Origin: an uncultured Clostridia bacterium
GTDB lineage: Bacteria > Bacillota > Clostridia > Christensenellales > UBA3700
Assembly (NCBI GenBank): GCA_946623205.1
Contig: CAMOQV010000002.1
Span: 1-38,566, forward strand
Direction: 5' to 3'
DNA length: 38,566 bases
Position 1 is the first letter of the stretch, and each line of letters begins with the position of its first letter. The position numbers were made by a program, and so were the translations under genes. The notes under the pieces were generated by a model. That model ran no database searches. It saw only the letters and a list, made by a program, of their open reading frames with translations, and was not told the DNA's origin. This document shows positions 7,835-35,933 of the stretch, piece by piece.

Positions 7835-7856
7835 AATAACCCTCCTAAGCAAGAGA

Positions 7857-8100
7857 CAATAAAAAAGCCTCTATGCTATATACTTACATAGAGGACGAAT
7901 AAATCCGTGGTACCACCTCAATTCACGCTAAAGCGCCTCAAACATTTATACAGATGACTCTGTCGTAGCCTACACATCTTTCGACTTCGGTACGCTGCTC
8001 CAAGAATGTATTCATTATATTAAAACTGATGTTTTACACCAACCAACATCTCTCTTGAAGTTATTAATATAACTACTTGTTTCTCTTCGTTGCTTTATCA
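7857..8100 (-). promoter_or_regulatory. T-box riboswitch leader with intrinsic terminator; candidate specifier UAC (Tyr)
   Basis: Minus strand carries AATTGAGGTGGTACCACGG (7923-7905), the conserved T-box sequence. A CCTCTATG...CATAGAGG + T-run terminator follows (7894-7857). Stem I elements: AGTA...GAA-TAC-A specifier-loop pattern (codon at 8010-8008), an AGAGA bulge and a GGTGTAAA distal loop. Confidence 0.85.
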
Positions 8101-10169: not shown

Positions 10170-10212
10170 GTTTTTACTATTAAAATAAAATTAAAGTACT
10201 TTGGAGGGTATT

Positions 10213-12009
10213 ATGGCAGAAAAGAAGGAAAATAAGCAAAAGAGTACTTTCGTACAATTCCTTTTGTTTATTGTTATGAGTTTAGCCGCATTCGCTGTTC
10301 AATTTGCGATTGTACAATTCGGACCAGCTGGTCTTAAGCTTTGTGGAGTAGATGATACTTTAAAAATGGATTTCTGGATTTTTAAAGGATACACACTAGC
10401 TGCATTTATATCATTCTTAGTTGCAAATACTTTGGCAAAAATTATCTCTTACATTTTAAATAGAAAGAAGACATTTAATGCCGTTAATAATTTGGTATTT
10501 TCAATGACAGTATATGTAATTATGTGCGTAACTTTAATTATTGTTGAAACTCTAATTGGAGAACCATTAGCTAATGCATATGCAAATTTATTTGAATCAA
10601 ATCCAGCAATTGCAGAATGGGCACCAACAATGTCAATGATTACATATTCAATTGCTGACTTCCTAATTGTATTCTTGATGGAGAAGTTTGTAATTATGAA
10701 CGATAATCTATTCAAGAAAAAGAATAAGGCTAATGCTGAAGATGAAGCTGAAGCAGAAGAAGTTGCTGACGAAGCTGAAGCAGAAAAGGCTGAAGAAGTA
10801 AAAGAAGAAGCTATCGTAGACGAAGTTAAAGACGAAGAGCCAGTTGCTGCTCCAGTAGAAGAAGTAAAAGAAGAAGAAAAGGTTGAAGAACCTGCTGAGG
10901 AAAAAGTCGAAGAAGAAAAGGTTGAAGAACCTGTTCAAGAAGAAGCTAAAGCTGAAGAACCTGTTCAAGAAGAAGCTAAAGCTGAAGAACCTGCTCAAGA
11001 AGAAGTTGTAGTTGAAGAAGCTAAAGCTGAAGAACCAGCTGCTATTCCTGTAGTAGAAGAAAAAGTTGAAGAACCTGTTAAAGAAGAGGCTCCAGCAAAG
11101 AAGGCTCCTGCTAAGAAGAGCGCTAAGAAAGCTAAAGAAGAAACAAAAGCAGAAGAACCAGCAAAAGAAGAAGTAAAGGCAGAAGAACCAGCTAAGGAAG
11201 AAGCAAAAGCAGAAGAGCCAAAGAAAGCTCCTGCTAAGAAAACAACAAAGAAAGCTAATGCTGGTAAGGTAGAATTTGACTTAAGAGTTGATGGTTACCA
11301 TTTCGAAGTTTCTGCTATGAACGGACAATTAATGTTCGAAAGCCAAGGCTTTGCATCATTAGAGACAGCTAAGACAGGATTTGAAACATTCAAGGCTGCA
11401 CTTGAAGACGAATCAACTCCAGCAACTGTTTATGAAGATAAGAGAGGCTTATGGAGATTCGTTATCAACAAGAGATATGTTGGTGAAGGATATAAGACTC
11501 GTGCTCAAGCTGAAGCTGCTATCGATTCAGTAAAGAGAGACGCTTTATTTGGTAAGGTTGAAGACTTCGTAGAAGATCCAGAAGAAAAGAAAGCATTCAA
11601 CGATGCTAAGAAGAAGTTAAACAAAGGTGCTGGTGTAGATTGGGATACAGCTTTAAAGGCTCCAGCTAAGACATTCGGTAAATTTGAAATTAACGGACAC
11701 GAAGGTAGAGGATATTTCTTCACACTTTACGCAAACAATGGTCAAATCTTATATTGCAGCCGTTACTATGCATCACAAGATTCTTGTGAAGATGCAATCA
11801 CAACATTCAAGAAAGCTTGCTATTTAGATAACTTCTTTATCGATAAAGACAAATTCGGTAACTGGAGATTCGTGCTAAAGGGAACAGGTGCAGGTATTGT
11901 TTATGTTGGCGAAAGCTATAGCACAAAAGATGCTGCAATTTCAAGTTCTGAATCAGTTAAGAAGTTCGCAATGACAGCTAAGATTGTTGTTGTTGAAGAC
12001 GAAGACTAA
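10213..12009 (+). CDS. Fusion protein: GtrA-like membrane domain, acidic E/K/A/P repeat linker, two tandem pairs of YegP (DUF1508)-like repeats
   Basis: N-terminal 4-TM region with GtrA-like layout. About 190 aa of EEPAKEEAKAEEP-type repeats follow. The C-terminus has four YegP-like units (YHFEVSAMNGQLMFESQGF.., WRFVINKRYVGEGY.., YFFTLYANNGQILYCSRYY.., WRFVLKGTGAGIVYVGESY..). Start set at ATG 10213 after GGAGGG; the listed TTG 10201 overlaps the RBS. Confidence 0.7.
   Translation: MAEKKENKQKSTFVQFLLFIVMSLAAFAVQFAIVQFGPAGLKLCGVDDTLKMDFWIFKGYTLAAFISFLVANTLAKIISYILNRKKTFNAVNNLVFSMTVYVIMCVTLIIVETLIGEPLANAYANLFESNPAIAEWAPTMSMITYSIADFLIVFLMEKFVIMNDNLFKKKNKANAEDEAEAEEVADEAEAEKAEEVKEEAIVDEVKDEEPVAAPVEEVKEEEKVEEPAEEKVEEEKVEEPVQEEAKAEEPVQEEAKAEEPAQEEVVVEEAKAEEPAAIPVVEEKVEEPVKEEAPAKKAPAKKSAKKAKEETKAEEPAKEEVKAEEPAKEEAKAEEPKKAPAKKTTKKANAGKVEFDLRVDGYHFEVSAMNGQLMFESQGFASLETAKTGFETFKAALEDESTPATVYEDKRGLWRFVINKRYVGEGYKTRAQAEAAIDSVKRDALFGKVEDFVEDPEEKKAFNDAKKKLNKGAGVDWDTALKAPAKTFGKFEINGHEGRGYFFTLYANNGQILYCSRYYASQDSCEDAITTFKKACYLDNFFIDKDKFGNWRFVLKGTGAGIVYVGESYSTKDAAISSSESVKKFAMTAKIVVVEDED
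10924..10983 (+). repeat. Perfect 30-nt in-frame tandem duplication inside the acidic linker (a third degenerate copy follows)
   Basis: gaagaacctgttcaagaagaagctaaagct occurs twice back to back, then gaagaacctgctcaagaagaag. Confidence 0.9.
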
Positions 12010-12197: not shown

Positions 12198-13916
12198 ATG
12201 TTACTAAGTAAATTATGCTGTGAAAGAACAAAAGAAGCTCCAGGAGATGCAAAGATTAAATCTCACATCTTATTAGCAAGAGCAGGATTCATTAAGCAAG
12301 TTGCTAATGGTATTTATTCTATGACAATGCCATGCCAAAGAATGAGTCAAAGAATCCAAAAGATCATTAGAGAAGAAATGGATGCTTGTGATGGACAAGA
12401 AGTTTTATTCCCAGTAGTAATGCCCCGCGAGTTATGGGAAACATCAGGAAGATATCAAAGCATTGGATCTGAAATGGTTAGATTCAAGGATAGATCAAAC
12501 CATGATATGCTACTTGGTATGACTCATGAAGAAGCTGCCGTTCATATGGCTAATCATATTGTTTCAAGTTATACTCAACTTCCAATGATGATTTACCAAA
12601 TTCAAACAAAGTTTAGAGATGAAGCAAGAGCTAGAGGTGGATTAATTCGTGTTAGAGAATTCACAATGAAGGATGCTTATTCTTTCCATACAACAAAGGA
12701 AGATCTAGAGCAATACTATATGCAAATCCATAAGGCTTACCAAAATATCTTCAGAAGAATCGGTTTAAAGAGATTTATTGATGTTAAATCAGATTCTGGT
12801 ATGATGGGCGGAAGTGTAGCACATGAATTTATGCTATTAACAGAAGTTGGTGAAGATTCTATCGTATTATGTAACCATTGCGATTATAGAGCAAATATGG
12901 AAGTTGCTTCAGGTATTATTGAAAAGCCAATTTATGCTGACGCAGAATTAGCATTAGTTGATACTGGAACTGACAAGACAATTGAAGAAGTAGCTAAAAG
13001 ATTAAATGTTCCAGCAACACAAACTGCAAAGGCTGTTGTGTTTGCAGTTAAGGGAGATCAAGATCAAGTTGTTATTGCTTTTGTAAGAGGCGATTTAGAA
13101 GTTAACGAAGCAAAGCTTAAGAAAGTTCTTAAGAAAGATGTTGTGGCTTATGATGGTGGTACATCTGCATCTGTCGTTTGCGGAAACATCGGACCAAAAG
13201 ATTTAGACAAATCTATCATTGTTGTATACGATAAGTCTTTGGAAGGAACAAAAGGAATGGTAGTTGGTGCAAATAAAGAAGGATACCACTATACAGGATT
13301 CAACTTTGAAAGAGATATAAAGGATGCTAAATTTGATGACATCGCAAAGACAAGAGCAGGGGATAAGTGCCCAATCTGCGGTGGCGATTTGAGAATAGAA
13401 AATGGTATTGAAATTGGAAATATTTTCCAATTAGGTACAAAATATACTCAATCTATGGGAATGCAAGTTACTGGACCAGATGGCCAATTATTTAATCCTA
13501 TTATGGGATGCTATGGAATTGGAGTTGGTAGAGCTATTGCTTCTATCGCACAAGAGTCAAATGATGATAATGGATTAATTCTTCCAATTACTGTTGCTCC
13601 ATGGCAAGTTCATATTTGCGTATTAAGACAAGATGATGAAGTTGTAGCTTCAAAAGCTAATGCATTATATAAGGATTTAGAATCAAATGGAATTGATGTT
13701 CTATTTGATGATAGAAACTGTGGTGCAGGTATTAAATTTAATGATGCAGATTTAATGGGTATGCCAATTAGAGTTGTAATATCTCCAAAGAGTTTGCAAA
13801 ATGATGAAGTTGAAATCACTATTAGAAAGACAAAAGAAAGCTTCAAAGTTAAATATGAAGATGCTATTAATGAAATCAAGAACTTAATTACAAAGCTTGA
13901 AGAAGAATATAAATAA
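12198..13916 (+). CDS. proS: Prolyl-tRNA synthetase (bacterial type with editing insertion)
   Basis: N-terminus TKEAPGDAKIKSHILLARAGFIKQVANGIYSM, class II motifs (FRDEARARGGLIRVREFTMKDAYSF) and C-terminus GCYGIGVGR match ProRS throughout. Confidence 0.95.
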   Translation: MLLSKLCCERTKEAPGDAKIKSHILLARAGFIKQVANGIYSMTMPCQRMSQRIQKIIREEMDACDGQEVLFPVVMPRELWETSGRYQSIGSEMVRFKDRSNHDMLLGMTHEEAAVHMANHIVSSYTQLPMMIYQIQTKFRDEARARGGLIRVREFTMKDAYSFHTTKEDLEQYYMQIHKAYQNIFRRIGLKRFIDVKSDSGMMGGSVAHEFMLLTEVGEDSIVLCNHCDYRANMEVASGIIEKPIYADAELALVDTGTDKTIEEVAKRLNVPATQTAKAVVFAVKGDQDQVVIAFVRGDLEVNEAKLKKVLKKDVVAYDGGTSASVVCGNIGPKDLDKSIIVVYDKSLEGTKGMVVGANKEGYHYTGFNFERDIKDAKFDDIAKTRAGDKCPICGGDLRIENGIEIGNIFQLGTKYTQSMGMQVTGPDGQLFNPIMGCYGIGVGRAIASIAQESNDDNGLILPITVAPWQVHICVLRQDDEVVASKANALYKDLESNGIDVLFDDRNCGAGIKFNDADLMGMPIRVVISPKSLQNDEVEITIRKTKESFKVKYEDAINEIKNLITKLEEEYK

Positions 13917-13934
13917 TATTTAATATTAAGCATT

Positions 13935-13980
13935 AAAAAACCTCCAAAGTTTTTACTTTTTCAAGTGTCCACTTTGGAGG
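13935..13980 (-). terminator. Terminator hairpin between convergent proS and luxS (T-run only on the minus strand)
   Basis: CCTCCAAAGT (13941-13950) pairs with ACTTTGGAGG (13971-13980). The A6 at 13935-13940 gives a T-run downstream of luxS. Confidence 0.7.
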
Positions 13981-14006
13981 TATCATATCATTCATCCTCG
14001 TTTTTT

Positions 14007-14432
14007 TTATTTCTTTAAAACTTCCAAATATGCTTTAATTTCTCGCTTAGCTCCTTCTAAATCATGCTCTTTATAATTTCCGCATTGTTTTCTTTCAGTT
14101 CCAGGAACATAATCTAACTCTAAACATTTTTCAAAGCATTCAATTGTTACTTGTTTAGCTTCCTCTTCTTTGATGCCATATAGAAGAAGGTAACATCCAG
14201 TTCTACATCCCATTGGTCCAAAATATACAACATTATCTTTAATTCTGCTGTTTCTTATTACTACAGCGAACAAATGCTCAATAGAGTGTATAGCTGCATA
14301 TGAAATGTAATCCCCACCATTTGGGTGTTTAAATCTCAAATCGTATGTATATACGTTATGTGCTTCGCCCAAGCAATAAAAGCCTGGTGTTAATTTATCA
14401 TGATCTAATTCAAAAGACTTAATGTTATCCAT
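14007..14432 (-). CDS. luxS: S-ribosylhomocysteine lyase
   Basis: HSIEHLFA metal-binding motif, GPMGCRTG motif and the N-terminal SFELDHDK pattern are typical of LuxS. Start set at ATG 14432 (MDNIKSF), which follows GAGGT; the 31-aa upstream extension is unlikely. Confidence 0.9.
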   Translation of the reverse strand: MDNIKSFELDHDKLTPGFYCLGEAHNVYTYDLRFKHPNGGDYISYAAIHSIEHLFAVVIRNSRIKDNVVYFGPMGCRTGCYLLLYGIKEEEAKQVTIECFEKCLELDYVPGTERKQCGNYKEHDLEGAKREIKAYLEVLKK

Positions 14433-14560
14433 ATTTACCTCGCGAAATAATGATAGCATATTTCCCTTTAAATAATATACACAAAATGATAATAATTTTG
14501 CACAATTTGTGTTAATATTTTTCATAACTAATTAAATATAAAACATTTAAAGTAGCACGA

Positions 14561-14589
14561 TTTGGCAAAATATATGGATTTTTTGGCAA
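14561..14589 (+). promoter_or_regulatory. Direct repeat TTTGGCAA x2 with 21-nt start-to-start spacing; candidate LytTR-regulator binding site
   Basis: TTTGGCAA at 14561-14568 and 14582-14589, ending 6 nt upstream of the -35 hexamer. Confidence 0.4.
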
Positions 14590-14595
14590 GAATCA

Positions 14596-14624
14596 TTGAC
14601 ATTTTATATTGTTAAAAATATAAT
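14596..14624 (+). promoter_or_regulatory. Consensus sigma-A promoter for the two-component/helicase operon
   Basis: TTGACA (14596-14601), a 17-nt spacer, then TATAAT (14619-14624). Confidence 0.7.
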
Positions 14625-14648
14625 AAATCGTGTTAAGAGGTGCAAAAT

Positions 14649-15359
14649 ATGTTTAAGATTGCAATATGCGATGATGAAAAAGAAGAATTAAATAAATCTT
14701 TGCAATGTGTTACAACACATTTTGAGTCAGCTACAGATAAGGCTACAGTTGATGTATTTACAGACCCAAAACAATTAATCGACAAAGTTAAAGAAAACGT
14801 TATTTATGATTTATACATTTTGGACGTTTTGATGGGAGATGTTAATGGTATTGATGTTGCCAAGATAATTAAGTCTTTTTCAAAGAATGCTAAAATTATA
14901 TTTACAACTACATCAAGAGAATTTGCTGTTGATGCGTTTGCTGTTCAAGCAGACAATTATCTAGTTAAGCCATACAAGCAAGATGATATGGATAATGCTT
15001 TAAATAGAGTTATTAAAACAATTCCACAAAATTTATTTATTATTAAAAATACTAGTGATGGAATTAAGAAGATATATTTGAACACAATTTGTTATTCAGA
15101 ATCAAGTGGGCATTATCAATATGTTCATTTGGATAACAAGGAAGTCTTAAAGATTCGTCTTAAGACAAATGAGCTTTGGGATGAATTAAGCAAATATAAG
15201 CAATTCATTAGACCTCATAGCGGATATATCGTAAATATGGACCAAGTTAAAACTATGACATCTTTTGGTATGAATGTTTGTGATGTTGATGTCCCAATTT
15301 CTAAAAATACGTACAACAAAGTAAAGCGTATTTTTATGGAGTACACATTTAATAAATAA
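14649..15359 (+). CDS. LytR/AlgR-family response regulator (receiver + LytTR DNA-binding domain)
   Basis: Receiver signature IAICDDE...LDVLMGDVNGIDV. C-terminal LytTR signature FIRPHSGYIVNMDQV. ATG 14649 lies 8 nt after AAGAGG. Confidence 0.9.
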   Translation: MFKIAICDDEKEELNKSLQCVTTHFESATDKATVDVFTDPKQLIDKVKENVIYDLYILDVLMGDVNGIDVAKIIKSFSKNAKIIFTTTSREFAVDAFAVQADNYLVKPYKQDDMDNALNRVIKTIPQNLFIIKNTSDGIKKIYLNTICYSESSGHYQYVHLDNKEVLKIRLKTNELWDELSKYKQFIRPHSGYIVNMDQVKTMTSFGMNVCDVDVPISKNTYNKVKRIFMEYTFNK

Positions 15360-16666
15360 TGCTAACAGTTTCAAGAATTATATTGTATATAGTTACAATC
15401 GCGGGAGCAGGCGGACTAATTTGGTGCGTTACTGAGGCGCGTCGTTCTATAACATACGTAGTTCCAATAGGTCTTGCAGTATTTGGTATTAGCTTTGTTG
15501 CAGCACTTTTCGCTGCTATGTATATTCACGATGAAAATATATATTATTCAGCAATTGCTACAATTTCACTAGTTACACTAGTGCCAGTTATGCTTTATAT
15601 TTCAAAAGACCCATGGTATAAGTTGCTTTTCGAATTGGCGACACAGGCAAATGCATTTTTGATTACGATGTATGTCGGAAAGAGCTTTGGCGTACTGTTT
15701 GGAAATAATGAGTGGGCTGACGTTGGCTTTAGAGCACTTTCCTTTATAATTATTATATTGATGTATAAAACATTCTTAAAAGATAGATTTAGATCATTTG
15801 CTAACCAATATAATTCGGTATATGGTTGGTTGTTCTTGTTTATAGTAACTATATCATTTACGGTATTGTTCTTATCGATTCAATATTTCCCAGTTACATT
15901 AGCACAAAGAACAGATGTTAAATTATTTACGACAGTTATGAATTTTGCAATTGTTGCTTATACGATTACATACATTGCTCTAGTTGCATTGTTTAATAGA
16001 ATATTACTTAGTCAAAAAGCTAAAGCAGAGGTTCAAGCTGCAGAATTAAAGATGGATTATTGGAAAGCACAAATCGCAACACAAGAAGTTCTTATTAACA
16101 ATACAAGAAAAATAAAGCATGACATGCGTCATCATGATGCATTGCTTGTTGATTGTATAACAAATAAAGAATACGATAAAGCTTTAAAATATCTTCAAGA
16201 GCATGGCGCAATAATTGATCAAATTACAATAAAACAATATTGTGAGAATTATACAGTTAACTGTCTATTGTCTACATATATTAGAAAGGCAGAAAATGCA
16301 GGTATTCAAGTAGAATGTCAAACTCAAGTCCCAAAAGAGTTGCAAATTGACGATTTGAGATTGGCTTCAATATTTGCGAACTTAGTAGAAAATGCTATTG
16401 AAGCATGCGATAGAATTAAAGACGAATCTGTTCATAAATTTATAAATATTAGTTCTAAATATGATAATGGTGCATTAAAGATATTGGTAGAAAATTCATC
16501 AAATGATGACGTTAAATTTGATGGCCCATTCCCAATATCTCAAAAAGCTAATCCAAGTGGCATTGGCACAAAGACAATCTATGAATTTGCAAATAGATAT
16601 AATGGTCTTTGTGAATACACTTTAGAAAATGGCGTATTTAGTGCTAGATTGCTTTTGGTGGTTTAA
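15359..16666 (+). CDS. AgrC-like (HPK10-type) membrane sensor histidine kinase with GHKL ATPase domain
   Basis: About 6 N-terminal TM helices, H-box KIKHDMRHH, N-box FANLVENAIEA and G-box GIGTKTIYEF. The start overlaps the regulator stop (TAATG). Confidence 0.85.
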   Translation: MLTVSRIILYIVTIAGAGGLIWCVTEARRSITYVVPIGLAVFGISFVAALFAAMYIHDENIYYSAIATISLVTLVPVMLYISKDPWYKLLFELATQANAFLITMYVGKSFGVLFGNNEWADVGFRALSFIIIILMYKTFLKDRFRSFANQYNSVYGWLFLFIVTISFTVLFLSIQYFPVTLAQRTDVKLFTTVMNFAIVAYTITYIALVALFNRILLSQKAKAEVQAAELKMDYWKAQIATQEVLINNTRKIKHDMRHHDALLVDCITNKEYDKALKYLQEHGAIIDQITIKQYCENYTVNCLLSTYIRKAENAGIQVECQTQVPKELQIDDLRLASIFANLVENAIEACDRIKDESVHKFINISSKYDNGALKILVENSSNDDVKFDGPFPISQKANPSGIGTKTIYEFANRYNGLCEYTLENGVFSARLLLVV

Positions 16667-16668
16667 TA

Positions 16669-17556
16669 GTGAATTCAACAAATACATTGAGAATATGTAA
16701 AAGCTATAAAGACAGGCTTGAAAAGTTATCTTCTTTATTAGAATATCCAGAATTTAATATTGATTATAATTTTTCAAAAAGGTTTTTAAAAGAGATATCA
16801 AAACTTAAGCCGATAGTTGAATTATATGATTTATATCTAATTTCGGATCAAGAAATAGAAAAGCAAGATATATTATCTAGCATCAACAAACTTATAATTA
16901 AAGATAAGGTTGATGAATACGATGGAATTAAGATTGAGATTTCATCTAAAGATTTAGAGGCAAAAGCTTTTTTGCAAAAATCCTATCAAACCTATTTTTC
17001 ATCATGCCAATATAAAGTAATTGAAGATGATGGCTTGATAATTCTAGGAACATCAATATATTCAATCTATAAGAATGAAACGGGAATTCATATATATAAA
17101 GATGGTTATGAATCTGAAGTGAAGGTTTTGGTATTGCCATATATTGAAAGTAAGGAAACCGAAATTCCGTTAAGCGATTTAAGAATCGATTATTACCACT
17201 CATCTGGCGCCGGCGGACAAAATGTGAATAAAGTTGAGACGGCAATTAGAATTACGCATATTGACACCAATATCGTCGTTACATGCCAAGATGAAAGATC
17301 TCAACTAAAGAATAAGCAAAGAGCGTTAGAGTTAATAAATAAAAAGGTTAATCAATATTATCTAGATAAAGTTCAAAAAGAGATTGATTCTATAAGAAAG
17401 GAAGCGAAGAATAACAAAACTATCATAAGAACTATAGATGTAACAAAAAATGAACTATTTGATACGCGCACGCAAAAGAAATATAATATTAGTGATGTGT
17501 TCAAGAGCGAGTTGGGCGATATCGATAGCGAGATTTTAGTTAATGAAGTTAAATAG
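16669..17556 (+). CDS. Peptide chain release factor 1-like paralog: GGQ domain intact, PxT codon-recognition loop absent
   Basis: SSGAGGQNVNKVETAIRITHIDTNIVVTCQDERSQLKNKQ matches the RF GGQ domain (GGQ at 17212-17220). The N-terminus resembles the RF1 helical domain. Where RF1 has RVQRVPxTExxGRIHTS, this protein has only IYKDGYESEVKV. GTG start 2 nt after the kinase stop; 295 aa against about 355 for RF1. Confidence 0.75.
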   Translation: MNSTNTLRICKSYKDRLEKLSSLLEYPEFNIDYNFSKRFLKEISKLKPIVELYDLYLISDQEIEKQDILSSINKLIIKDKVDEYDGIKIEISSKDLEAKAFLQKSYQTYFSSCQYKVIEDDGLIILGTSIYSIYKNETGIHIYKDGYESEVKVLVLPYIESKETEIPLSDLRIDYYHSSGAGGQNVNKVETAIRITHIDTNIVVTCQDERSQLKNKQRALELINKKVNQYYLDKVQKEIDSIRKEAKNNKTIIRTIDVTKNELFDTRTQKKYNISDVFKSELGDIDSEILVNEVK

Positions 17557-19945
17557 TGTAGTAAATATTAAGATAGATCCATCAATTACTGTTCTTTCAG
17601 ATTCTACGCGAATTTTTAAAAGCGAACTATTTATAAAACAAACAAAAAATCTAAAAGAAATTGACAGATTCTTAACTAAGATATCTGATGGTATATTAAT
17701 TGCGCTTAAGGATAATGTCATTGATTTAATGGATGCATACATTATCTCTTTAATGGATGGGCAAAATTCGCTTTTATTCAAGTTCGGAAAGAACGTCAAA
17801 AATGATGCACTAAATCAAGCGGATATTGTCTTTTATAAATTCATAACAAAAGATGAAATTAAATATGAAGATAAAAGATTGGTGCGTGCAATTCAAAAAG
17901 ATGAAATAAGCATCGATATTAAAAAGATCCAAGATTTAACAAACCAAGATATTCAAAAGTTATATATTCTATCTAATGAAGATAAGGTGAATTTGCCTCT
18001 TTTAAATAAGGAGCAAGAAAAGCTAGTTACACTTGAAAACGACAATATTATTATTCAAGGTGTTGCAGGTTCAGGAAAGACAAATATTTGTATAGATAGA
18101 ATCGTGTATTCTGCATCTAGAAGATATAGAGGCAAGATTTTATATAGTACATATTCACATGCACTTTTGCAAGATACGAAAAACAAGGTGTCATTATTTA
18201 ATAGCAATATAAAAGATTTTGCAAAGAAGATGCAAGATAAAAAAGTCGTCTTTATAGGGAAGAATAAAAAAGCCGCAATTGAAAATAGATTAGGAATTTG
18301 GTTAGATGTTCAAGATGAAGATAGAATAATTGCTGCATTATTTGAGATGTCTAATTATCTAGAAACTAAAGTAGACTATATGCTTATCGAAGATTTATAT
18401 AATGCTAAAAGGGGAGCAAATATAATCTTTGAGGACGAAAAGAGCTTTATAAATTCATATATAAATAACATTAAAAACTACAATCTAAAAAGCAGCATAG
18501 ATAAAATAAAGTATTTGTCGTTTGAAGTAATCTATAAAGAAATATATGGACTTATTTTAGGCTATGCAAATATGCCAACTCAAGAAGAATATGTAGAATT
18601 GAGGAAAGACAGCTTTTCATCGCAAGAAGCTTCTACTATTTATTTAATAGCTAAAGATTATTTAAAATATTTAGAATCTTCAAATAAGATAGACAATAAT
18701 ATCGCATCAAGATATATACTTTCAAGATTAAATAGTATAGATAAATATTCGCTTTGTGTATTAGATGAGGTTCAGGACTTTACTCAAATAAATCTAAACA
18801 TGTTTAGAGAAATTTCATATAAGATGTTCTGCGTAGGTGATGCACTTCAGATGATTAACCCTGCATATTTTAGCTTCGCTTATTTGAAAAGATTAATGTT
18901 TGATGAGAATTATGCTAATGTTGTAGAACTAAGAAATAACTACAGAAATTCAAAAAAGATAGAAAAGATAATAGATAATTTAAGCGAATTAAATATAGAG
19001 CAATTTGGTACGCACAGCTTTGTCCTTAGAGGAAAGAGTGTAGATGATGAGTTGCTTGCAAAAACGGTTTATATAAATAGTTCTAACTTTATACAATACC
19101 TAAAGAATAAGGCTTATTCAGATGTAACACTTGTTGTCGATACAAAGGAAAGGAAGCAAGCTTTAAGGGCTATGTTTCCAAGACAAGAAATATTGACTAT
19201 ATCTGAAATAAAAGGGTTAGAGAGAAACTTTGTTATCTTGTTGGATGTTTTATCTGACAATTCTCAAAAATGGGATTATTTACAACGTACAATAATTAAA
19301 AAGAAAAAGGCAGAAGAAAATTCTGTATATAGATACTATTTTAATTTGTTCTATGTTGGATTAACTCGTGCAAAGCAAAATTTGTTTGTAGTAGAAGGAA
19401 AAAATATAAATCTATTTAAGAATTTCTTCGATAATAATTTTGATGCACTTTCAGATAAGGCGGCATTTGATTTATTGGAGAGCGTTGCAAGTAAAGTAGA
19501 TTTAGACAGACAAGAAATAATTGAAAGAATAGAAGAATTTATTAGACATGAGCAATATGACAACGCAAGAGTGCTTTTGGAGAGATTAGATAAAGATGAT
19601 GCTCATCTTCAAAGCGTAAAGATAGATATTTATGAAAAGTATATAAGACGAAATCAAAATAGAGAAGCAGGAATTGAGTTCTGGAAGATGGGTCTTTTAG
19701 ACGATGCAAAAGAACAATTTAGAATTTCACACGATGATAAATTAATAACACTTTTAGAGGCGTGCGAGTCAAATGGATCAAATTTAGAATATGACATTGT
19801 TGAATTTTACAATGAAGTAAAAGATAACGATATCGCCAAGAATTTAATTTTGGATACTCTAAAGGATGATTTAAATAAAATAAAGTCAACTCAACAAACT
19901 ATTATAAATAGCATTCACAAAAGGAGAACGAAGTATGGAAAATAA
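17543..19945 (+). CDS. SF1 (UvrD/Rep/HelD-like) helicase with unassigned ~170-aa N-terminal and ~180-aa C-terminal regions
   Basis: Walker A GVAGSGKT (18059-18082), motif II VLDEVQDF (18758-18781), NYRNS, GLERNFVILLDV and motif VI YVGLTRAKQNLFVV. The start overlaps the RF-like stop by 14 nt. Confidence 0.8.
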   Translation: MKLNSVVNIKIDPSITVLSDSTRIFKSELFIKQTKNLKEIDRFLTKISDGILIALKDNVIDLMDAYIISLMDGQNSLLFKFGKNVKNDALNQADIVFYKFITKDEIKYEDKRLVRAIQKDEISIDIKKIQDLTNQDIQKLYILSNEDKVNLPLLNKEQEKLVTLENDNIIIQGVAGSGKTNICIDRIVYSASRRYRGKILYSTYSHALLQDTKNKVSLFNSNIKDFAKKMQDKKVVFIGKNKKAAIENRLGIWLDVQDEDRIIAALFEMSNYLETKVDYMLIEDLYNAKRGANIIFEDEKSFINSYINNIKNYNLKSSIDKIKYLSFEVIYKEIYGLILGYANMPTQEEYVELRKDSFSSQEASTIYLIAKDYLKYLESSNKIDNNIASRYILSRLNSIDKYSLCVLDEVQDFTQINLNMFREISYKMFCVGDALQMINPAYFSFAYLKRLMFDENYANVVELRNNYRNSKKIEKIIDNLSELNIEQFGTHSFVLRGKSVDDELLAKTVYINSSNFIQYLKNKAYSDVTLVVDTKERKQALRAMFPRQEILTISEIKGLERNFVILLDVLSDNSQKWDYLQRTIIKKKKAEENSVYRYYFNLFYVGLTRAKQNLFVVEGKNINLFKNFFDNNFDALSDKAAFDLLESVASKVDLDRQEIIERIEEFIRHEQYDNARVLLERLDKDDAHLQSVKIDIYEKYIRRNQNREAGIEFWKMGLLDDAKEQFRISHDDKLITLLEACESNGSNLEYDIVEFYNEVKDNDIAKNLILDTLKDDLNKIKSTQQTIINSIHKRRTKYGK

Positions 19946-20648
19946 CGAAGTACAATCTTTAATTAGTGCATTTAAAGGTTATAGGGACATATTAACACCT
20001 ATACAAACCTCGTTACATGAGCTAGCAGACACTTATTCTACAATGGAGGAAGATTTGCAAAAGCTATCTTTGGCTTTTAATGGCGATGCGAAAACAAAAC
20101 TTAATCAGATTTATGATAATCTTTCTAATCAATCTAAAAAGTCTGCAGATTTGGCATCAAGTATTGATGCGTTCTTAAAGAATAGTAATAAATACATTTC
20201 TGATGTATCTAAGATTTCATCAAATCTCGAAGCATTTGAAGAAAAGATTTCAACTTTAAATGAGATTGAAAAGAAAGCTCAAGAACAAATGAGAAGGTTA
20301 GATGAACTGATCGAAGAAAAGAAGATAAACTACAATGTTAAAGATCTAGAAAGAGCTTTAGATTCATACAATAATAACGTTCAAAAAGTAAGTGATTTTA
20401 TCAACAAAGATGTTGCACAGTCTTTGAATGAAACTTCGAAAAAGGTTGATGCTATTAAAAAAGATAGTGAAGAGTTGGCACGACAATTAAAAGACGAAAA
20501 CAAAACTGTTGATGAATTAATTATGACATATAAGACAACCAATAAACTTCTTCAAAATACTATAGAGAAAGAAGGCGTAAACGAAGAATATATATTTGCA
20601 ATATTAGATAAATGGGCAAACGAAAGAGGCGTTAAGACTAAAAGATAA
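19935..20648 (+). CDS. Coiled-coil protein of unknown function (237 aa)
   Basis: Heptad-rich, E/K/L/S-rich sequence with no TM segment. AGGAG RBS. The start overlaps the helicase stop by 11 nt. Confidence 0.6.
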   Translation: MENNEVQSLISAFKGYRDILTPIQTSLHELADTYSTMEEDLQKLSLAFNGDAKTKLNQIYDNLSNQSKKSADLASSIDAFLKNSNKYISDVSKISSNLEAFEEKISTLNEIEKKAQEQMRRLDELIEEKKINYNVKDLERALDSYNNNVQKVSDFINKDVAQSLNETSKKVDAIKKDSEELARQLKDENKTVDELIMTYKTTNKLLQNTIEKEGVNEEYIFAILDKWANERGVKTKR

Positions 20649-22510
20649 TGCTACAAGGAATAGATAAGGAAATCTTTAAAGCTATAAAGGCAGATGATAT
20701 AAAAGCATTTAGAGCATGTATGCAAGATGCTCAAGCTTTGACGCTATCTTATGGAAGATTTCCAATTCTTTCGTTGTGTTATTTGTATAATTCTAGACAT
20801 ATTATTAAAGAATTTGAAGATAAGCTTTTGCAAATAAGATCATATACAATATATCCAGAAAATAGCGAGATGTATATACTTTTTAAATCTAAAGCTAAAA
20901 GATGTATACGTTTATATGCTGGGAAAGATTGTATAGTGCATCCGCTTGAAATGCTTTGTATATTAAATAAGAAAACTCGTGTAGAAGCTGTATATCCAAA
21001 AGCGATAAAGACTAATTCAACAATTGAGAATATAAAGATGATTGAATCTATTAAGTATTCAAAAGAGGTTGAAGCTACGGAAACAAAGATTGTCTTACCA
21101 AAGCAACCAATAGATAAGAACTTTATAAAAACATCTTTGGCTGCTATGGCGATATTGCTCGTTGTAGCAATTGTATTTTCCGTTCTTGGTGGATTTGTTT
21201 ATTCGCTTGGAAATGGTAGCGAAGATAGACCATATAAGGTTGTGGGCGAATCTCAACTTATAAAGGCAATAGAGTCTAACTCATATGTCATTTTAGATAG
21301 AGATATTGAAGTTGATAATTTGGATTTTGATAGTTATAGCGGAATTATTGATGGCAATGGTCATACAATAACTATAAACAATCAAACAGGAACTATATTT
21401 AAAGAAATATCTGGAACTATCAAAAATGTTAATTTTAGTATTATTTTAAATTATGAAACAAAAACATCTGCATCAGTGTTAGTAACAAATCTAACTGGCA
21501 CATTAGATGGCGTCAATGTTGATATATTAGGAAATTTGAAATATACAGGCAATGCCGCATCTAGCGTTACTTTAAATCTTTCTGTTTATTCAAATGAAAA
21601 CAATGGAACAATTAAAAATTGTGTATTAAATTCAAATTTAAACATTATAGGTAACGGTGTTAATGATGTAGTTTTTGGCGGGTTTAGCGCGCAAAATAAA
21701 AATGCGATTTTAAATGTTGAAGCTTTGGGTAATATTGAAATGGAAGAAGTAAATGGGGCTGTTGTTTCTTATGTAAATACAGGAACTATAGAAAATGCTC
21801 AAAATAAAACCAATATTAGTCAAACGACAAATGCATTCAATTGCGATTTAATGGTTGCGTCTATGGCAATCAAAAATTTTGGAAATATTAAAAATGCCAT
21901 TAATGAAGGTAAGATTTCTCTAAAAGCAACGAATGAAAAAGGGGCCTATGTATTTATGGGCGGAATTGCTTGCGATAACTATTTAACCATTGAGCATTCA
22001 AAGAATTTGGGTGAAATAATTTGCGATGGAGAATATTTCCATGCAAAGATTGGTGGTATTGCGTCAACTGGTGAATATTATTTTGTAGATAATTATCCAA
22101 CATTTGATTCATGTGCATCCTTAGGAAAGGTTAGCGTTATAACTATAAAGACTATATCAAGGTCTTATGTGGGTGGAATAGTTGGTGGCTTTAGAGAATA
22201 TGATTATATATATAATCGTCTGCCAATTGTCATAAAAGATTGCTATTCAGTATATGAAGTTGATTTGCAAGGCACATATGAGGCCAAATTATTAGGTGGG
22301 CTTGCTGGGCTTTGGCCATTTATGAACAATGCTGGCACATATTTGAGTAATAATGCTTATTTGGTTAAAGAATCAGTCCCTCATGCTTTGTATATTTGCT
22401 ATGAGTCGTCATTCTTTGAGTATGTATACGATGCGTACGATAGTGTCGAGGGTATGTTTAGCGGGTATAATACAGAGGATGAAATAAAAGCTTTGGAGAT
22501 TTATTGGTAA
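20648..22510 (+). CDS. Single-pass membrane protein: ~160-aa cytoplasmic helical-repeat domain, TM helix, extracellular GLUG/beta-helix-like domain
   Basis: TM helix LAAMAILLVVAIVFSVLGGFVYSL (about 21137-21208). The ectodomain opens with PYKVVGESQLIKAI...YSGIIDGNGHTITI and carries GGFSAQ, GGIACD, GGIAST, GGIVGG and GGLAGL motifs, as in the 487-3978 lipoprotein. TAATG overlap with the upstream gene. Confidence 0.65.
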   Translation: MLQGIDKEIFKAIKADDIKAFRACMQDAQALTLSYGRFPILSLCYLYNSRHIIKEFEDKLLQIRSYTIYPENSEMYILFKSKAKRCIRLYAGKDCIVHPLEMLCILNKKTRVEAVYPKAIKTNSTIENIKMIESIKYSKEVEATETKIVLPKQPIDKNFIKTSLAAMAILLVVAIVFSVLGGFVYSLGNGSEDRPYKVVGESQLIKAIESNSYVILDRDIEVDNLDFDSYSGIIDGNGHTITINNQTGTIFKEISGTIKNVNFSIILNYETKTSASVLVTNLTGTLDGVNVDILGNLKYTGNAASSVTLNLSVYSNENNGTIKNCVLNSNLNIIGNGVNDVVFGGFSAQNKNAILNVEALGNIEMEEVNGAVVSYVNTGTIENAQNKTNISQTTNAFNCDLMVASMAIKNFGNIKNAINEGKISLKATNEKGAYVFMGGIACDNYLTIEHSKNLGEIICDGEYFHAKIGGIASTGEYYFVDNYPTFDSCASLGKVSVITIKTISRSYVGGIVGGFREYDYIYNRLPIVIKDCYSVYEVDLQGTYEAKLLGGLAGLWPFMNNAGTYLSNNAYLVKESVPHALYICYESSFFEYVYDAYDSVEGMFSGYNTEDEIKALEIYW

Positions 22511-22734
22511 TGTTTAGAGAAGACAAACATAAAGTAGCTGTATATATGTCTTTATTAATTATGGCAATCGTGGATGCTATAGCATTGCTTGTTGCTTTAG
22601 TGCTTGGAATTATGCTAGGTGTTGGCGCGCTTTTACAATCTCAAGGCATAATAATAGCCGCAATTTTTGTTGCAGCTATAAATGTTTTAGAAATTATATT
22701 TATTCTAATTTGTTTGTTAAAGACTAAAGATTAA
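22510..22734 (+). CDS. Small two-TM membrane protein (74 aa)
   Basis: Two long hydrophobic stretches. ATG 22510 overlaps the upstream TAA (TAATG). The 3' end overlaps the convergent TetR gene by 4 nt. Confidence 0.5.
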   Translation: MFREDKHKVAVYMSLLIMAIVDAIALLVALVLGIMLGVGALLQSQGIIIAAIFVAAINVLEIIFILICLLKTKD

Positions 22735-23333
22735 CTATTTAATATATTTGTTATGCTTGCACAAACTAATTCGGACATTTGCCCATAATCTATATAATCA
22801 TGCTTGTCATATAAGTATTCGTGTGCATAAGATTGAACAATATCCATAATTAAATGAACTTTTTCTGTAAGATTTTTATTTTCAAATCCAAGTTCGATTA
22901 ATTTTTGAGCTCCAAGTTCTGTAATTGTTTTTTCTAATTCCATAAATTCTTCATTGATATCATTATGCGTGTCTGCAAGAGAATGTAAGATATTATGTAA
23001 ATTTGCATTTGTATGATGTAGTTTTGTTGTTAGTGCAACTAAAGACTTAGAAAGCTCATCAACATCTATAGGTGCTGATATAGAATCTAAATATTCGATA
23101 ATAGGAGCTTTTATATCATTAATATATATTTTTAATACATAAAACAATATATCTCTTTTATCTTTGAAATATCCGTAAACAATACCAGTAGAAACGCCTG
23201 CAACCTTTGCGATGTCTGCAGTGTTAGTGTTGTAATAGCCGACATCTGAAAATACTTTGTAGGCAGCCTTTATAATAGCTTCTTTTTTTTGCTTTGATCT
23301 CTCTTGTCGAGGTTCTCTAATTTCATTTCCCAT
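22731..23333 (-). CDS. TetR/AcrR-family transcriptional regulator
   Basis: N-terminal HTH KKEAIIKAAYKVFSDVGYYNTNTADIAKVAGVSTGIVYGYFKDKRDI. Confidence 0.9.
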   Translation of the reverse strand: MGNEIREPRQERSKQKKEAIIKAAYKVFSDVGYYNTNTADIAKVAGVSTGIVYGYFKDKRDILFYVLKIYINDIKAPIIEYLDSISAPIDVDELSKSLVALTTKLHHTNANLHNILHSLADTHNDINEEFMELEKTITELGAQKLIELGFENKNLTEKVHLIMDIVQSYAHEYLYDKHDYIDYGQMSELVCASITNILNS

Positions 23334-23391
23334 ACGACTATTTTATACCGAATCGACACATTATTGCAAGATGTAATATTTATATTAAAAA

Positions 23392-23480
23392 ATATGAAAA
23401 ATGTTTCATATAATGCTTGACAATAGAAAATTTGGATATTAATATAAAATTGTGAAAGTGAAATTGGTTTCATATTTCAC
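23392..23480 (+). promoter_or_regulatory. feo promoter region: TTGACA-17-TAATAT flanked by two inverted repeats
   Basis: ATATGAAA-aatg-TTTCATAT (23392-23411). TTGACA (23417-23422) and TAATAT (23440-23445). GTGAAAT-N9-ATTTCAC (23458-23480). Confidence 0.45.
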
Positions 23481-23497
23481 AAAGAGAGGTTTACATT

Positions 23498-23710
23498 ATG
23501 CCAATAGTATTAGCACCAACTAATAAGATATTGAAAATAGTTAGAATATCTGCAGACGAAAAAACAAAGAAGCATTTAGAGAATTTGGGTATCACAATAA
23601 ATGGAGATATTACAATCCTAAGTTCATCAGGTGGAACAGTCGTTTGTAAGATAAAGGATGGTAGAATCGCGTTAGATCGCAATCTATCAACACATATATT
23701 TGTAGCGTAG
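23498..23710 (+). CDS. feoA: FeoA-family protein
   Basis: 70-aa SH3-like FeoA pattern (KIVRISADEKTKKHLENLGITINGDITIL), upstream of feoB. Confidence 0.85.
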   Translation: MPIVLAPTNKILKIVRISADEKTKKHLENLGITINGDITILSSSGGTVVCKIKDGRIALDRNLSTHIFVA

Positions 23711-23737
23711 GAAAAAATTTAAAGGAGCATATAGATT

Positions 23738-23971
23738 ATGGAAAAAACATTGGACAATTTTTCTATAGGCGAGAAAGGCATTGTAAAGATGGTTCTTGGC
23801 GAAGGAAAAATTAAGAGAAGACTTTTCGATATGGGCATCACCCCAGGCGCAGAAGTTTTTCTAAGAAAGAAGGCTCCTCTTGGTGATCCAATAGAAATCA
23901 CGTTGAGAGGTTATGAATTAACACTAAGAAAGACAGAAGCTGCATGTGTTAAAGTGGAGGTACAATCATGA
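23738..23971 (+). CDS. feoA: FeoA-family protein (second copy)
   Basis: GEKGIVKMVLGEGKIKRRLFDMGITPGAEVFLRKKAPLGDPIEI is canonical FeoA. ATGA overlap with feoB. Confidence 0.9.
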   Translation: MEKTLDNFSIGEKGIVKMVLGEGKIKRRLFDMGITPGAEVFLRKKAPLGDPIEITLRGYELTLRKTEAACVKVEVQS

Positions 23972-26274
23972 AGAGATTTGCATTAGCGGGAAACCCAAAC
24001 TGTGGTAAAACAACATTGTTTAATTCTCTTACTGGATCTACAGCACATGTTGGTAACTGGCCAGGTGTTACAGTAGACAAGAGAGATGGTGTTTACAAAA
24101 AGTGCGCAGAACCTGTTAAGATTATTGACTTACCAGGCATTTATTCTTTGTCACCATATACACCAGAAGAATTAATTGCTAGAAATTATATATTGGATGA
24201 AAAGCCAGATTGCGTTATTAACATCGTAGATGCTACTAACTTAGAAAGAAACTTATACTTGACAACACAAATACTAGAAATGGATGTTCCTGTAGTTGTA
24301 GCGCTTAACATGATGGACGCAGTAAAGAAAAGTGGAGATTCTATCAACGCTAAATTGCTAGAAGAAAGACTTGGTGTTCCTGTTGTAGAAATATCTGCAT
24401 TAAAAGAAACTGGATTAAAAGAATTGATGGATAAAGCTTTCAACGAAAGCAAAAAGATTAGAGAAGGTTCAACAGTTTTGGAAACATCTCCTCTTGGCCA
24501 TTTAATTGGCGATGTAAAGATTGCGCTAAAGGGTCAAAATGTTGCCAATCCATTGTTCCATGCTGTAAAGCTTGTTGAACAAGATGAAATTGAAGCTAAC
24601 ATGCATAAAGAAACGCTTCCAATGGTTGAAGAATTTAAAAAGACATTTAATGATGAAATCTTTGGTGGTGATTTTGAAGCACTGGTTGCTGATGCTAGAT
24701 ATAAATATATCTCTTCAAACTTTGCTTCTGTATTATCTAAAAAATCTAAAGATACAACTAAGATGTCTAAATCAGATAAGGCAGATAAGGTATTAACTCA
24801 TAAATGGTGGGGTATTCCTATTTTCTTAGTAATCTTATTTGGTATTTTCCATTTAACATTCGGTGAAGATTTACTATTCTTAGGAAAGATTTTCTCATTG
24901 CCATCACTAGAAGACTTAGGACTTTTAAATGAAGATGGTGATCCAATTAATTTTGGTGTTAGAATTTTAGCTACATTCTACGATGGTGCTGTTATGTCGC
25001 CAGGCGTTTGGATTAATAATGTTTGGAACGACTTAATTGTCGGCGAATTCTTTGGATGGCTAGGTGGCCTTGTAGAAGAAAGTGGAATGGCACCTTGGGC
25101 AATCGGGTTAATTAACAACGGTATATTTGATGGTATTTCAGCAGTATTATCATTCTTACCACCAATCTTAGTATTGTTCTTATTCTTCTCAATTTTGGAA
25201 GATTCAGGATATATGGCTCGTATAGCATTTATCTTAGATAGAATGTTCAGAAGATTTGGTTTATCTGGTAGAGCATTTATGCCAATGATCATGGGCTTTG
25301 GATGTTCAGTTCCAGCTATGATTAATACAAGAACTTTAGCTGACGATAAAGAAAGAACAGCCACAGTAAGAGTTATCCCATTCTTCTCATGCGGTGCTAA
25401 ATTGCCAATCTTAACAGCAGTTGCAGGTGCTATCGTAGCATTCTTTGGAGTAGGTAATGCAGATGTTATAACATTTAGTATGTATTTGCTTGGTATTGTA
25501 ACAGCTATTGTATGTGTACTTTTGATGAGATCTACAACACTAAAGGGCGAAACACCTCCATTCATTATGGAATTACCAACATATCACGTTCCTCAATTTA
25601 AGAACTTGATGGCTCACCTTTGGGATAAGACAAAGCATTTCGTAAAGAAGGCATTCACAATTATCCTTGCATCTACAATCGTAATTTGGGCATTAACACA
25701 CTTCAGCTTCAACTGGACATTCCTAGAAGATGAACAAGTAAATGAAAGTATCTTAGCTGGTATTGCTCAATTAGTACAACCAATCTTTACACCACTTGGA
25801 TTTGGTTCACAATTAGGATCTTTAGGTTGGGTATTCGTTGTAGCTGCTGTAGCTGGTTTAATCGCTAAAGAAAACGTAATTGCTACATTCGCAACATTAG
25901 CTGCTTGTCTAGCTGCCGTAACAGGTCTAGATCTTGGAGGATTAGCAATTGATGCAGAAGATGGAATCGATGCTGTTCAAGCTATGATTCAAGCAACAGG
26001 AATTACAATCCCAGGATTGATAGCATTCATCGCATTCAATATGACAACAATTCCTTGCTTTGCAGCAGTAGCTACAGCAAAAGCTGAACTTGGTAACAAG
26101 TCAACATACCACTGGACATTAGTATTCTGGCTAGTAGCTTCATATGTAGTATCAGCAATCATATACACAGTTGGTTCTTGGTGGTGGACAATATTCATTT
26201 GGATGGTAGCTTGTGCCGGCTTAGTTGCATGCATCATTATGAGAAATAAAAAAGCAGCAAAGAGGTTGAATTAA
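23968..26274 (+). CDS. feoB: Ferrous iron transporter FeoB
   Basis: N-terminal G-domain (ALAGNPNCGKTTLFN, DLPGIYSL) followed by a polytopic membrane domain, 768 aa. Confidence 0.95.
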   Translation: MKRFALAGNPNCGKTTLFNSLTGSTAHVGNWPGVTVDKRDGVYKKCAEPVKIIDLPGIYSLSPYTPEELIARNYILDEKPDCVINIVDATNLERNLYLTTQILEMDVPVVVALNMMDAVKKSGDSINAKLLEERLGVPVVEISALKETGLKELMDKAFNESKKIREGSTVLETSPLGHLIGDVKIALKGQNVANPLFHAVKLVEQDEIEANMHKETLPMVEEFKKTFNDEIFGGDFEALVADARYKYISSNFASVLSKKSKDTTKMSKSDKADKVLTHKWWGIPIFLVILFGIFHLTFGEDLLFLGKIFSLPSLEDLGLLNEDGDPINFGVRILATFYDGAVMSPGVWINNVWNDLIVGEFFGWLGGLVEESGMAPWAIGLINNGIFDGISAVLSFLPPILVLFLFFSILEDSGYMARIAFILDRMFRRFGLSGRAFMPMIMGFGCSVPAMINTRTLADDKERTATVRVIPFFSCGAKLPILTAVAGAIVAFFGVGNADVITFSMYLLGIVTAIVCVLLMRSTTLKGETPPFIMELPTYHVPQFKNLMAHLWDKTKHFVKKAFTIILASTIVIWALTHFSFNWTFLEDEQVNESILAGIAQLVQPIFTPLGFGSQLGSLGWVFVVAAVAGLIAKENVIATFATLAACLAAVTGLDLGGLAIDAEDGIDAVQAMIQATGITIPGLIAFIAFNMTTIPCFAAVATAKAELGNKSTYHWTLVFWLVASYVVSAIIYTVGSWWWTIFIWMVACAGLVACIIMRNKKAAKRLN

Positions 26275-35565: not shown

Positions 35566-35598
35566 ATCTAAGTTTTTCAACTCCTTATTAAGTTATAT

Positions 35599-35879: not shown

Positions 35880-35933
35880 AAAACCTATATATTAAATATG
35901 GCAATTGATGTTGCTAAAAATAATAGGAGGTCA

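Follow-up and report, generated by a model that had tools for sequence, protein, structure and literature searches.

We analysed a 38,566-nt stretch of DNA from an uncultured Clostridia bacterium (contig CAMOQV010000002.1; "the window" means the whole of this stretch) and focused on a gene at 16669..17556 of the plus strand, which encodes a GGQ protein resembling release factor 1 (RF1) and is called R here. R retained the catalytic domain of RF1, lacked the elements that read stop codons, and stood first in a five-gene module followed by a helicase (H), a helical/coiled-coil protein (C), a membrane protein (T) and a small hydrophobic protein (S). We propose with moderate confidence that R would act as a stop-codon-independent peptidyl-tRNA hydrolase working with a helicase/membrane complex. 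We further propose that R and its relatives may constitute an undescribed family of helicase-linked, codon-blind RF1 derivatives, recognized by a retained GGQ, an absent PxT/SPF loop and a position directly upstream of H-C-T(-S). The window gene showed all three features; the two sequence features were present in 45 of 45 R proteins, and the upstream position was found in 37 of 42 evaluable helicase loci.

The R gene starts with GTG, has a Shine-Dalgarno-like GGTGG motif ~8 nt upstream, ends with TAG and encodes 295 amino acids (aa). Pfam RF-1 (PF00472) matched aa 162-258 (E = 5.5e-29), and Pfam PCRF scored 18.6 bits (E = 0.0018), under its 24-bit cut-off. The GGQ catalytic tripeptide was read at 17212..17220 (+; aa 182-184) and was invariant in all 45 family members, in line with the sequence-only reading of this DNA, which had described an RF1 paralogue with a retained GGQ domain. 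Against the profiles of RF1, RF2, PrfH and ArfB, R reached no curated cut-off. The NCBIfam scores were 127.5 bits for prfA NF001859 (cut-off 400) and 122.2 bits for prfA TIGR00019 (cut-off 423.25), followed by 112 bits for prfB (cut-off 370), 68.6 bits for prfH (cut-off 166.65) and 49.2 bits for ArfB (cut-off 100). Judged by these profiles, R is RF1-like, yet no RF1 equivalog.

At the position of the PxT tripeptide-anticodon loop, alignments and an AlphaFold2 model placed a short beta-hairpin turn, HIYKDGYES (17089..17115, +). The HMMER alignment of R to solved RF1 structures (1zbt, 1rq0) read GIHIYK-------DG--YESEVKV, a 9-residue deletion that takes out both the PxT and the RVHTS segment, and the alignments revealed no SPF tripeptide of RF2 in the loop region of R; the loss of about nine residues, with neither PxT nor SPF left, had been noticed from the sequence and was thus borne out. 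Multiple alignment with canonical RF1s showed that the AGTGGDEA tip of helix 5 and a 13-residue hairpin in domain 2 were also deleted, that the N-terminal domain 1 was shorter by ~28 residues, and that the RTYNFPQ block read IRTIDVTKNE, as degenerate as first described. The GTGGxEA helix-5 tip and the RxHTS segment contact stop-codon bases in RF1-ribosome structures. The GGQ and the flanking domain 3 of R were near-identical to those of canonical RF1 in the alignments. The protein has an isoelectric point (pI) of 5.67 and an acidic C-terminus, and it carries no basic C-terminal tail. A PxT loop hidden by misalignment was ruled out: the short hairpin turn appeared consistently in pairwise HMMER alignments to three solved RF1s, in two MAFFT alignments and in the AlphaFold2 model.

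The AlphaFold2 model of R, built from a 67-sequence alignment (pLDDT 83.1), showed a complete four-domain release-factor fold. The RF1-like N-terminal helices reported earlier reappeared in it as a three-helix domain 1 at aa 3-80, and at the anticodon-loop position a 3-residue turn joined strands 139-144 and 148-158. In a Foldseek search with this model, ribosome-bound open forms of RF1/RF2 ranked first (TMq 0.51-0.60), led by the BrfA-RF2 complex 6szs (0.60), with closed crystal forms at TMq 0.37-0.39 and PrfH at TMq 0.45.

To our protein search with R, ~40 clusters responded, 262-308 aa long, 39-99% identical and carrying the RF-1 domain only; canonical RF1s started at ~35% identity in the same search. 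Among the 45 distinct R homologues extracted from all gathered loci, GGQ was kept in every one and PxT or SPF in none, and the segment replacing the loop varied in both sequence and length. The mean top-residue frequency of the family (n = 45) was 0.80 in the core at aa 176-216 and 0.28-0.35 in domains 1, 2 and 4. Against an 87%-identical relative (L017), R had a dN/dS of 0.094 overall and 0.06-0.15 per domain, which indicates that all four domains are under purifying selection and that the gene is functional. A pseudogene or a gene in decay was ruled out by this dN/dS of 0.09 together with the family-wide conservation. A search of the literature for a GGQ protein linked to a helicase or to defence found nothing.

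Some members of the family departed from this layout. The R proteins of L040, L050, L053 and L058 were ~175-250 aa long as stop-to-stop open reading frames and had kept GGQ with most of domain 2 and/or 4 gone, which suggests a trend towards a minimal GGQ protein in some lineages. P0031, a 308-aa protein on a 993-nt ENA contig, was a chimera of an R-type N-terminal two-thirds and a canonical RF1 C-terminus with RTYNFPQ; most likely it arose when the assembly collapsed across the GGQ-coding region, which is highly conserved, and in that case the same sample also contained a canonical prfA whose GGQ-coding stretch is nearly identical.

Directly downstream of R on the plus strand, H (17543..19945) overlaps the end of R by 14 nt and encodes an 800-aa superfamily 1A (SF1A) helicase of the UvrD/PcrA/Rep-like type (Pfam UvrD-helicase, 1.5e-8). 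It is followed on the same strand by C (19935..20648; 237 aa, helical/coiled-coil, with only coiled-coil-type matches), T (20648..22510; 620 aa) and S (22510..22734; 74 aa, two hydrophobic helices), the last of which stands after T in the nearer relatives. T is a single-pass membrane protein with a conserved N-terminal domain at ~aa 1-160, a transmembrane segment at ~aa 163-186 and a C-terminal GLUG/IgA1-protease-like beta-helix domain; its topology was inferred from the charge distribution. An R-H overlap of 14-17 nt occurred in many loci. The order R-H-C-T-S recurred with LuxS ... TetR-FeoAB flanks, with a glycosyltransferase flank, with an rpsF-ssb-rpsR flank, with metallophosphoesterase and GreA/AspS flanks, and, on a 299-kb contig of a metagenome-assembled genome (MAG), with RelA/GpsA ... 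HAD/rubrerythrin/RecD2 flanks.

To avoid a bias from starting with R, we searched metagenome contigs with the helicase only, obtained 46 loci and scored their components by hidden Markov models. R lay directly upstream of H in 37 of the 42 loci with enough upstream sequence, and in L062 a pntAB pair lay between the two. C directly followed H in every locus reaching past H except L050, and T came next wherever the sequence extended; the length of C was near-constant (237-240 aa) across gene-called loci. No R-type protein was recovered away from H, and the R-like matches with matchable contigs shared those contigs with H matches. The sequence-only reading had called the location between a kinase and a helicase unusual. 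The adjacency stood, but it had been undersold, since the helicase is a conserved and often translationally coupled partner, with C, T and S in the same unit. The kinase is likewise present; it provides the sensor of a LytTR two-component system that accompanies the module only in some sub-clades.

Several loci deserve separate mention. L023, L024 and L064 formed a sub-clade without R in which T was much longer (958-1006 aa). A tyrosine integrase occupied the place of R directly upstream of H in L044, and a gene for a putative PadR-type regulator, judged only from its sequence, was directly upstream of H in L057. The apparent helicase truncations in L005 and L007 and a split kinase in L006 were traced to 100-N scaffold gaps (L005 4458-4557, L007 2574-2673, L006 6493-6592).

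All SF1 motifs of H, GxGSGKT (Walker A), DExQD, GDxxQ and VGxTRA, were invariant in 77 sequences, and H thus looks like an active helicase. Its AlphaFold2 model (pLDDT 84.2) had a beta-rich N-terminal domain of ~150 aa and a helical C-terminal domain of ~175 aa. PcrA, UvrD and Rep were closest to this model in Foldseek (TMq 0.37-0.40), and HelD, Upf1, Sen1 and IGHMBP2 scored lower (TMq 0.26-0.32). Sequence matches of H to the HelD structure 6wvk were limited to the Walker A region, HelD reached TMq 0.26-0.32 in Foldseek, and a HelD-like or Upf1-like identity of H is less likely, as the structure comparison favours UvrD/PcrA/Rep. Nothing usable came from PDB profile searches with C, the N-domain of T and the two terminal domains of H. 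The beta-helix region of T had a profile match to 3n6z, a putative IgA1 protease, and the T orthologue in L063 gave a "Glug (faint)" match. The N-domain of T was found in 316 representative clusters, always N-terminal, in proteins of 600-1089 aa. Besides T, a 1163-aa protein encoded in the window at 487-3978 (+) bears GLUG motifs, a beta-helix surface domain of the type seen in the T ectodomain, so the organism encodes several proteins of this type.

The helicase family comprised at least 865 clusters at E ≤ 1e-20, and the organism names attached to these clusters were only "Clostridia bacterium" or "Clostridiales bacterium" MAGs. The module loci had a GC content of 27-62%, and the source samples, judging by their names, were probably metagenomes from rumen, gut, termites and digesters. 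As far as seen here, the R family is confined to uncultured Clostridia of the rumen, gut, termites and digesters, and this confinement may explain why it was missed. A scan of GTDB species representatives matched one MAG, with a narrow pattern that gives no measure of rarity. IMG/VR contained no relatives of the N-terminal region of R or of H, the INPHARED phages contained no relative of H, and the PLSDB plasmids contained only distant helicases with 22-28% identity to H; the PHROG matches of R were generic GGQ-domain matches. A phage or plasmid origin of the module was rejected on the basis of these searches of viral, phage and plasmid collections (IMG/VR, INPHARED, PLSDB).

Upstream of R, the window carries a two-component system with a putative control region. 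A direct repeat, TTTGGCAA, occupied 14561-14568 and 14582-14589 (+) with a 21-bp period (TTTGGCAA-N13-TTTGGCAA) and is a candidate binding site for a LytTR response regulator; we take it to be a LytTR site by its likeness to AgrA/ComE-type promoters. A TTGGCAA pair at the 21-bp period was kept upstream of the regulator gene in L001/L012, L003, L019 and L056, with differing surrounding bases. The repeat was followed by a sigma-70-type promoter, TTGACA-17-TATAAT, at 14596..14624 (+; 12/12 matches), the sole perfect match in 13900-23500. The total of promoter-like matches in this interval equalled chance expectation, and the promoter is credible because of its position relative to the repeat and the response regulator gene. 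A repeat and a promoter upstream of the regulator are the architecture of LytTR-controlled, autoregulated promoters; since the window matches this architecture, the operon looks inducible.

The LytTR-family response regulator is encoded at 14640..15359 (+; Pfam Response_reg 4.1e-16, LytTR 2e-9), and its true start is probably the ATG at 14649, behind AAGAGGTG. The gene at 15359..16666 (+) encodes a membrane histidine kinase with a GHKL (HATPase_c_5) domain (Pfam HATPase_c_5, 1.9e-15), and its stop lies 2 nt before the start of R. In the window clade, as in the L014/L021/L055 clades, regulator and GHKL kinase immediately preceded R; L008 had the regulator only, and other lineages had neither. 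No AgrD-like peptide gene or AgrB was seen beside the two-component system.

We then compared window 12198-26274 with L001, L002 and L005. The flanking proteins were strongly conserved (ProS 88%, LuxS 88-90% and FeoB 90-96% identity), and the corresponding values for the module were 72-83% for C, 70-77% for H, 53-60% for R, 40-53% for T and 37-58% for S. The response regulator was 49-70% and the histidine kinase 48-66% identical. The module and its two-component system form a fast-evolving, hypervariable island whose chromosomal site is fixed. Within this island the surface-exposed T evolves fastest, and the pattern fits genes of conflict or specificity. An exact look-up of the neighbouring TetR, made for strain-level presence or absence, returned only short contigs, and these also carried S.

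In the mechanism that we consider, the LytTR two-component system of the window clade would switch on the operon from its autoregulated promoter, and T, S and C would form a membrane-anchored scaffold holding the ATP-driven helicase H. R, as one subunit or as the output enzyme of the five-gene module, would be delivered to, or licensed on, ribosomes associated with nucleic acid under helicase action. It would dock its GGQ domain into the peptidyl-transferase centre and hydrolyse peptidyl-tRNA without reading a stop codon, and nascent chains would be released whatever the A-site codon, so that translation would be aborted or the ribosome rescued. That such a protein could hydrolyse peptidyl-tRNA in this way had been suggested from the sequence, and it is still the interpretation that we favour. 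Ribosome binding, codon independence, the association of R with H, C, T and S, and the physiological role are what we infer here. Specificity would most likely come from the partner proteins, because the tip facing the decoding centre varies within the family and R has no basic tail of the ArfB kind. We lean towards a function in conflict or surveillance rather than in routine housekeeping. As a tentative extension, to which we give rather low credence, R-H-C-T-S might be a hitherto unrecognized, membrane-anchored surveillance or conflict machine of anaerobic Clostridia, in which a helicase-coupled, codon-blind release factor forcibly terminates ribosomes on targeted nucleic acid, be it invading, damaged or transcribed at the membrane.

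Three observations weigh against a hydrolase tied to the helicase complex. The fold of H is a DNA-helicase fold, so a direct link to the ribosome is not obvious. No R-H fusion protein was found. The helicase loci L023, L024, L044, L054 and L057, and also L064, were without R; since the H-C-T-S core can exist without it, R would be an accessory and not an essential part. On the other side stand the near-invariant catalytic core, the family-wide loss of the codon-reading loop and the recurrent position of R next to H.

A possible but doubtful variant is that the module, R included, is an inducible system against phages or mobile elements, in which T/S, exposed at the envelope, sense an attack, the helicase engages the incoming nucleic acid and R aborts translation by releasing peptides indiscriminately, after the logic of abortive infection. 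This would be a specific version of the proposed codon-independent hydrolase and no alternative to the biochemistry of R. The multi-gene operon, with what appear to be an active helicase and an effector-like enzyme, would suit such a role, as would the dispensability of R in some lineages, which is what a swappable effector would show. The evolution of the module, much faster than that of its flanks and fastest in the surface-exposed T, is likewise consistent with it, and so are the integrase directly upstream of H in L044, the two-component control that makes the module inducible and the weak GajB-like matches of H. A classical defence role was, however, disfavoured by several results. In PADLOC 2.0, R and T had no match, H had partial GajB/mad8 matches only, C gave coiled-coil noise, and no GajA was detected. 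The module position was syntenic among related genomes, and the module was absent from the viral contigs, phage records and plasmids searched. The flanks, analysed as 137 genes from 16 loci with 176 Pfam families, showed no enrichment and were metabolic or housekeeping in character. No alternative effector was seen in the place of R. The strongest PADLOC matches in the flanks (mad3, LmuB, GajA, AriA) all came from one SMC protein, and the others were weak or generic-looking; a defence-island location was rejected, given the lack of Pfam enrichment in the flanks and PADLOC matches that, where checked, were the SMC protein.

It is unlikely that R is a stand-alone, general ribosome-rescue factor in the niche of ArfB, with the helicase adjacency left by shared regulation or history. 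Firmicutes lack ArfB (PMC6514570), R has all the requirements of GGQ rescue except an empty-A-site sensor, and the H-C-T-S core occurs without R. These points are outweighed in our view by the adjacency to H, which was seen in 37 of 42 independent loci with various flanks and GC contents of 27-62%, and often with overlapping frames. The acidic C-terminus and pI of 5.67 leave R with no basic C-terminal tail or other known probe of the mRNA channel, what replaces the anticodon loop varies within the family, and no R-type protein was recovered away from an H gene.

Very improbable is a role of R as a ribosome-binding regulator or decoy, for example as an A-site blocker of termination or elongation, or as a structural adaptor for the helicase complex. 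Domains 1, 2 and 4 are under purifying selection though their RNA-reading residues are gone, which suggests new binding functions. The family is most strongly constrained, however, precisely at the catalytic GGQ loop and the residues next to it, which do not vary in any of the 45 sequences, and in inactive relatives such as MRPS35 the glutamine has been lost (PMC6514570).

That R is a divergent housekeeping RF1 of the organism, or a decaying duplicate, is hardly credible: its best database matches are RF1s, but its scores were ~30% of the prfA cut-offs, it has lost all three codon-reading elements, no prmC neighbours it and TAG is in use as a stop codon, and decay is contradicted by a family-wide trait under purifying selection. 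Among 29 window genes, the stop codon was TAA in 22, TAG in 6 (R itself included) and TGA in 1. TAG is read only by RF1. Because TAG ends 6 of these 29 genes and R is without a codon-reading element, a codon-reading RF1 should exist elsewhere in the genome, and R is unlikely to be the only RF1.

Compared with known systems, R is closest in sequence and structure to RF1 (PrfA; TIGR00019/NF001859), with which it shares the four-domain layout of an N-terminal helical domain, a domain 2/4 beta-sandwich and a near-identical domain 3 with GGQ. It differs from RF1 in lacking PxT, RVHTS and the GTGGDEA tip, in its shorter domain 1 and in its degenerate switch-loop/RTYNFPQ block; moreover, its gene heads a helicase operon and has no prmC beside it. 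Conceptually, PrfH-RtcB and ArfA/BrfA-RF2 appear to be the closest systems by analogy. PrfH, which acts with RtcB2 and rescues ribosomes with a damaged decoding centre, is also a GGQ protein derived from a release factor, with a remodelled domain 2/4 that lacks canonical codon reading; like R, it is tied genetically to a nucleic-acid enzyme partner and sporadically distributed (PMC6514570). The PrfH structures 9mor and 7sa4 were among the PDB matches of R. In contrast to R, which keeps the three-helix domain 1, PrfH (~200 aa) has no domain 1, and R was structurally less similar to PrfH (TMq 0.45) than to RF1/RF2. The partner of R is an SF1A helicase with membrane proteins, whereas PrfH pairs with the RtcB ligase; neither the annotated proteins of the window nor the gene-called homologous loci included an RtcB. 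The first description had already set R apart from PrfH for want of an RtcB partner and from ArfB for its architecture, and both distinctions hold.

ArfB, ICT1 and mtRF-R (C12orf65) resemble R in a presumed codon-independent hydrolysis of peptidyl-tRNA on the ribosome by the same GGQ domain. They are, however, ~140-200 aa long, and their GGQ domain is joined to a basic C-terminal tail with which the empty mRNA channel is probed. R, at 295 aa, has all four domains, with 1, 2 and 4 besides the GGQ domain; its C-terminus is acidic and its pI is 5.67. ArfA-RF2 and BrfA-RF2 are alike in concept, in that a separate protein and not a codon licenses a full-length release factor, and 6szs had the highest TM-score to the R model (TMq 0.60). 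Those systems combine a normal RF2 with a tiny adaptor peptide, whereas R is a dedicated paralogue whose candidate partner is a large helicase complex.

Upf1 with eRF1/eRF3 and the RQT helicase Slh1/ASCC3 offer an analogy only: in both, a superfamily-1/2 helicase is paired with a release-factor-type protein against aberrant translation. The release factors of Upf1-eRF1 are not homologous to R, the membrane components of the module have no counterpart there, and H was closer to SF1A UvrD/PcrA (TMq 0.37-0.40) than to Upf1/Sen1 (0.26-0.30). Gabija (GajA/GajB) also has an SF1A helicase in a multi-gene operon, and H gave partial GajB matches (E 3.6e-9 to 8e-8). These matches spanned the helicase motifs only, a GajA-type OLD/TOPRIM nuclease is missing from the module, H has unique domains at both ends that gave no PDB profile match, and R, C, T and S are unrelated to Gabija.

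To our knowledge, stop-codon-free termination in bacteria is known only via tmRNA, ArfA/BrfA with RF2, ArfB, and PrfH with RtcB. A systematic survey of 2019 listed only RF1, RF2, ArfB and PrfH as bacterial release-factor homologues and mentioned no helicase-linked clade (PMC6514570); full-text searches turned up no later description. R would represent a further class: a full-length RF1 derivative without any codon-reading elements, whose catalytic core is nearly invariant and whose gene is coupled to those of an SF1 helicase and of membrane proteins. The whole module may be a new system. It raises the question of how a release factor is licensed in the absence of a codon. If R is licensed by the helicase or by the membrane complex, nucleic-acid unwinding and envelope sensing would be linked to peptide release, and we know of no such link in bacteria. 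The surveillance machine sketched above, if true, would be a convergent bacterial counterpart of Upf1-eRF1-like, helicase-coupled translation surveillance, and the first case of premature peptide release as a regulated output.

Elsewhere in the window, a large serine recombinase (Resolvase, Recombinase, Zn_ribbon_recom) is encoded at 33934-35580 (-), ~11 kb downstream of the module, and may mark the edge of an integrated element; the open reading frames past it (35835-36701) had no Pfam match. A T-box leader (Rfam RF00230; 120 bits, gathering score 93) at 7888-8099 (-) lies upstream of a sodium:solute symporter gene at 6176-7852 (-), which is adjoined by a second SSF transporter at 4476-6050 (-). 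Such leaders are typical of Firmicutes. Between a gene for an Fe-alcohol dehydrogenase and proS, the stretch at 10201-12009 (+) encodes a 602-aa protein with a DUF1508 match (E 1.9e-22, best at aa 504-538).

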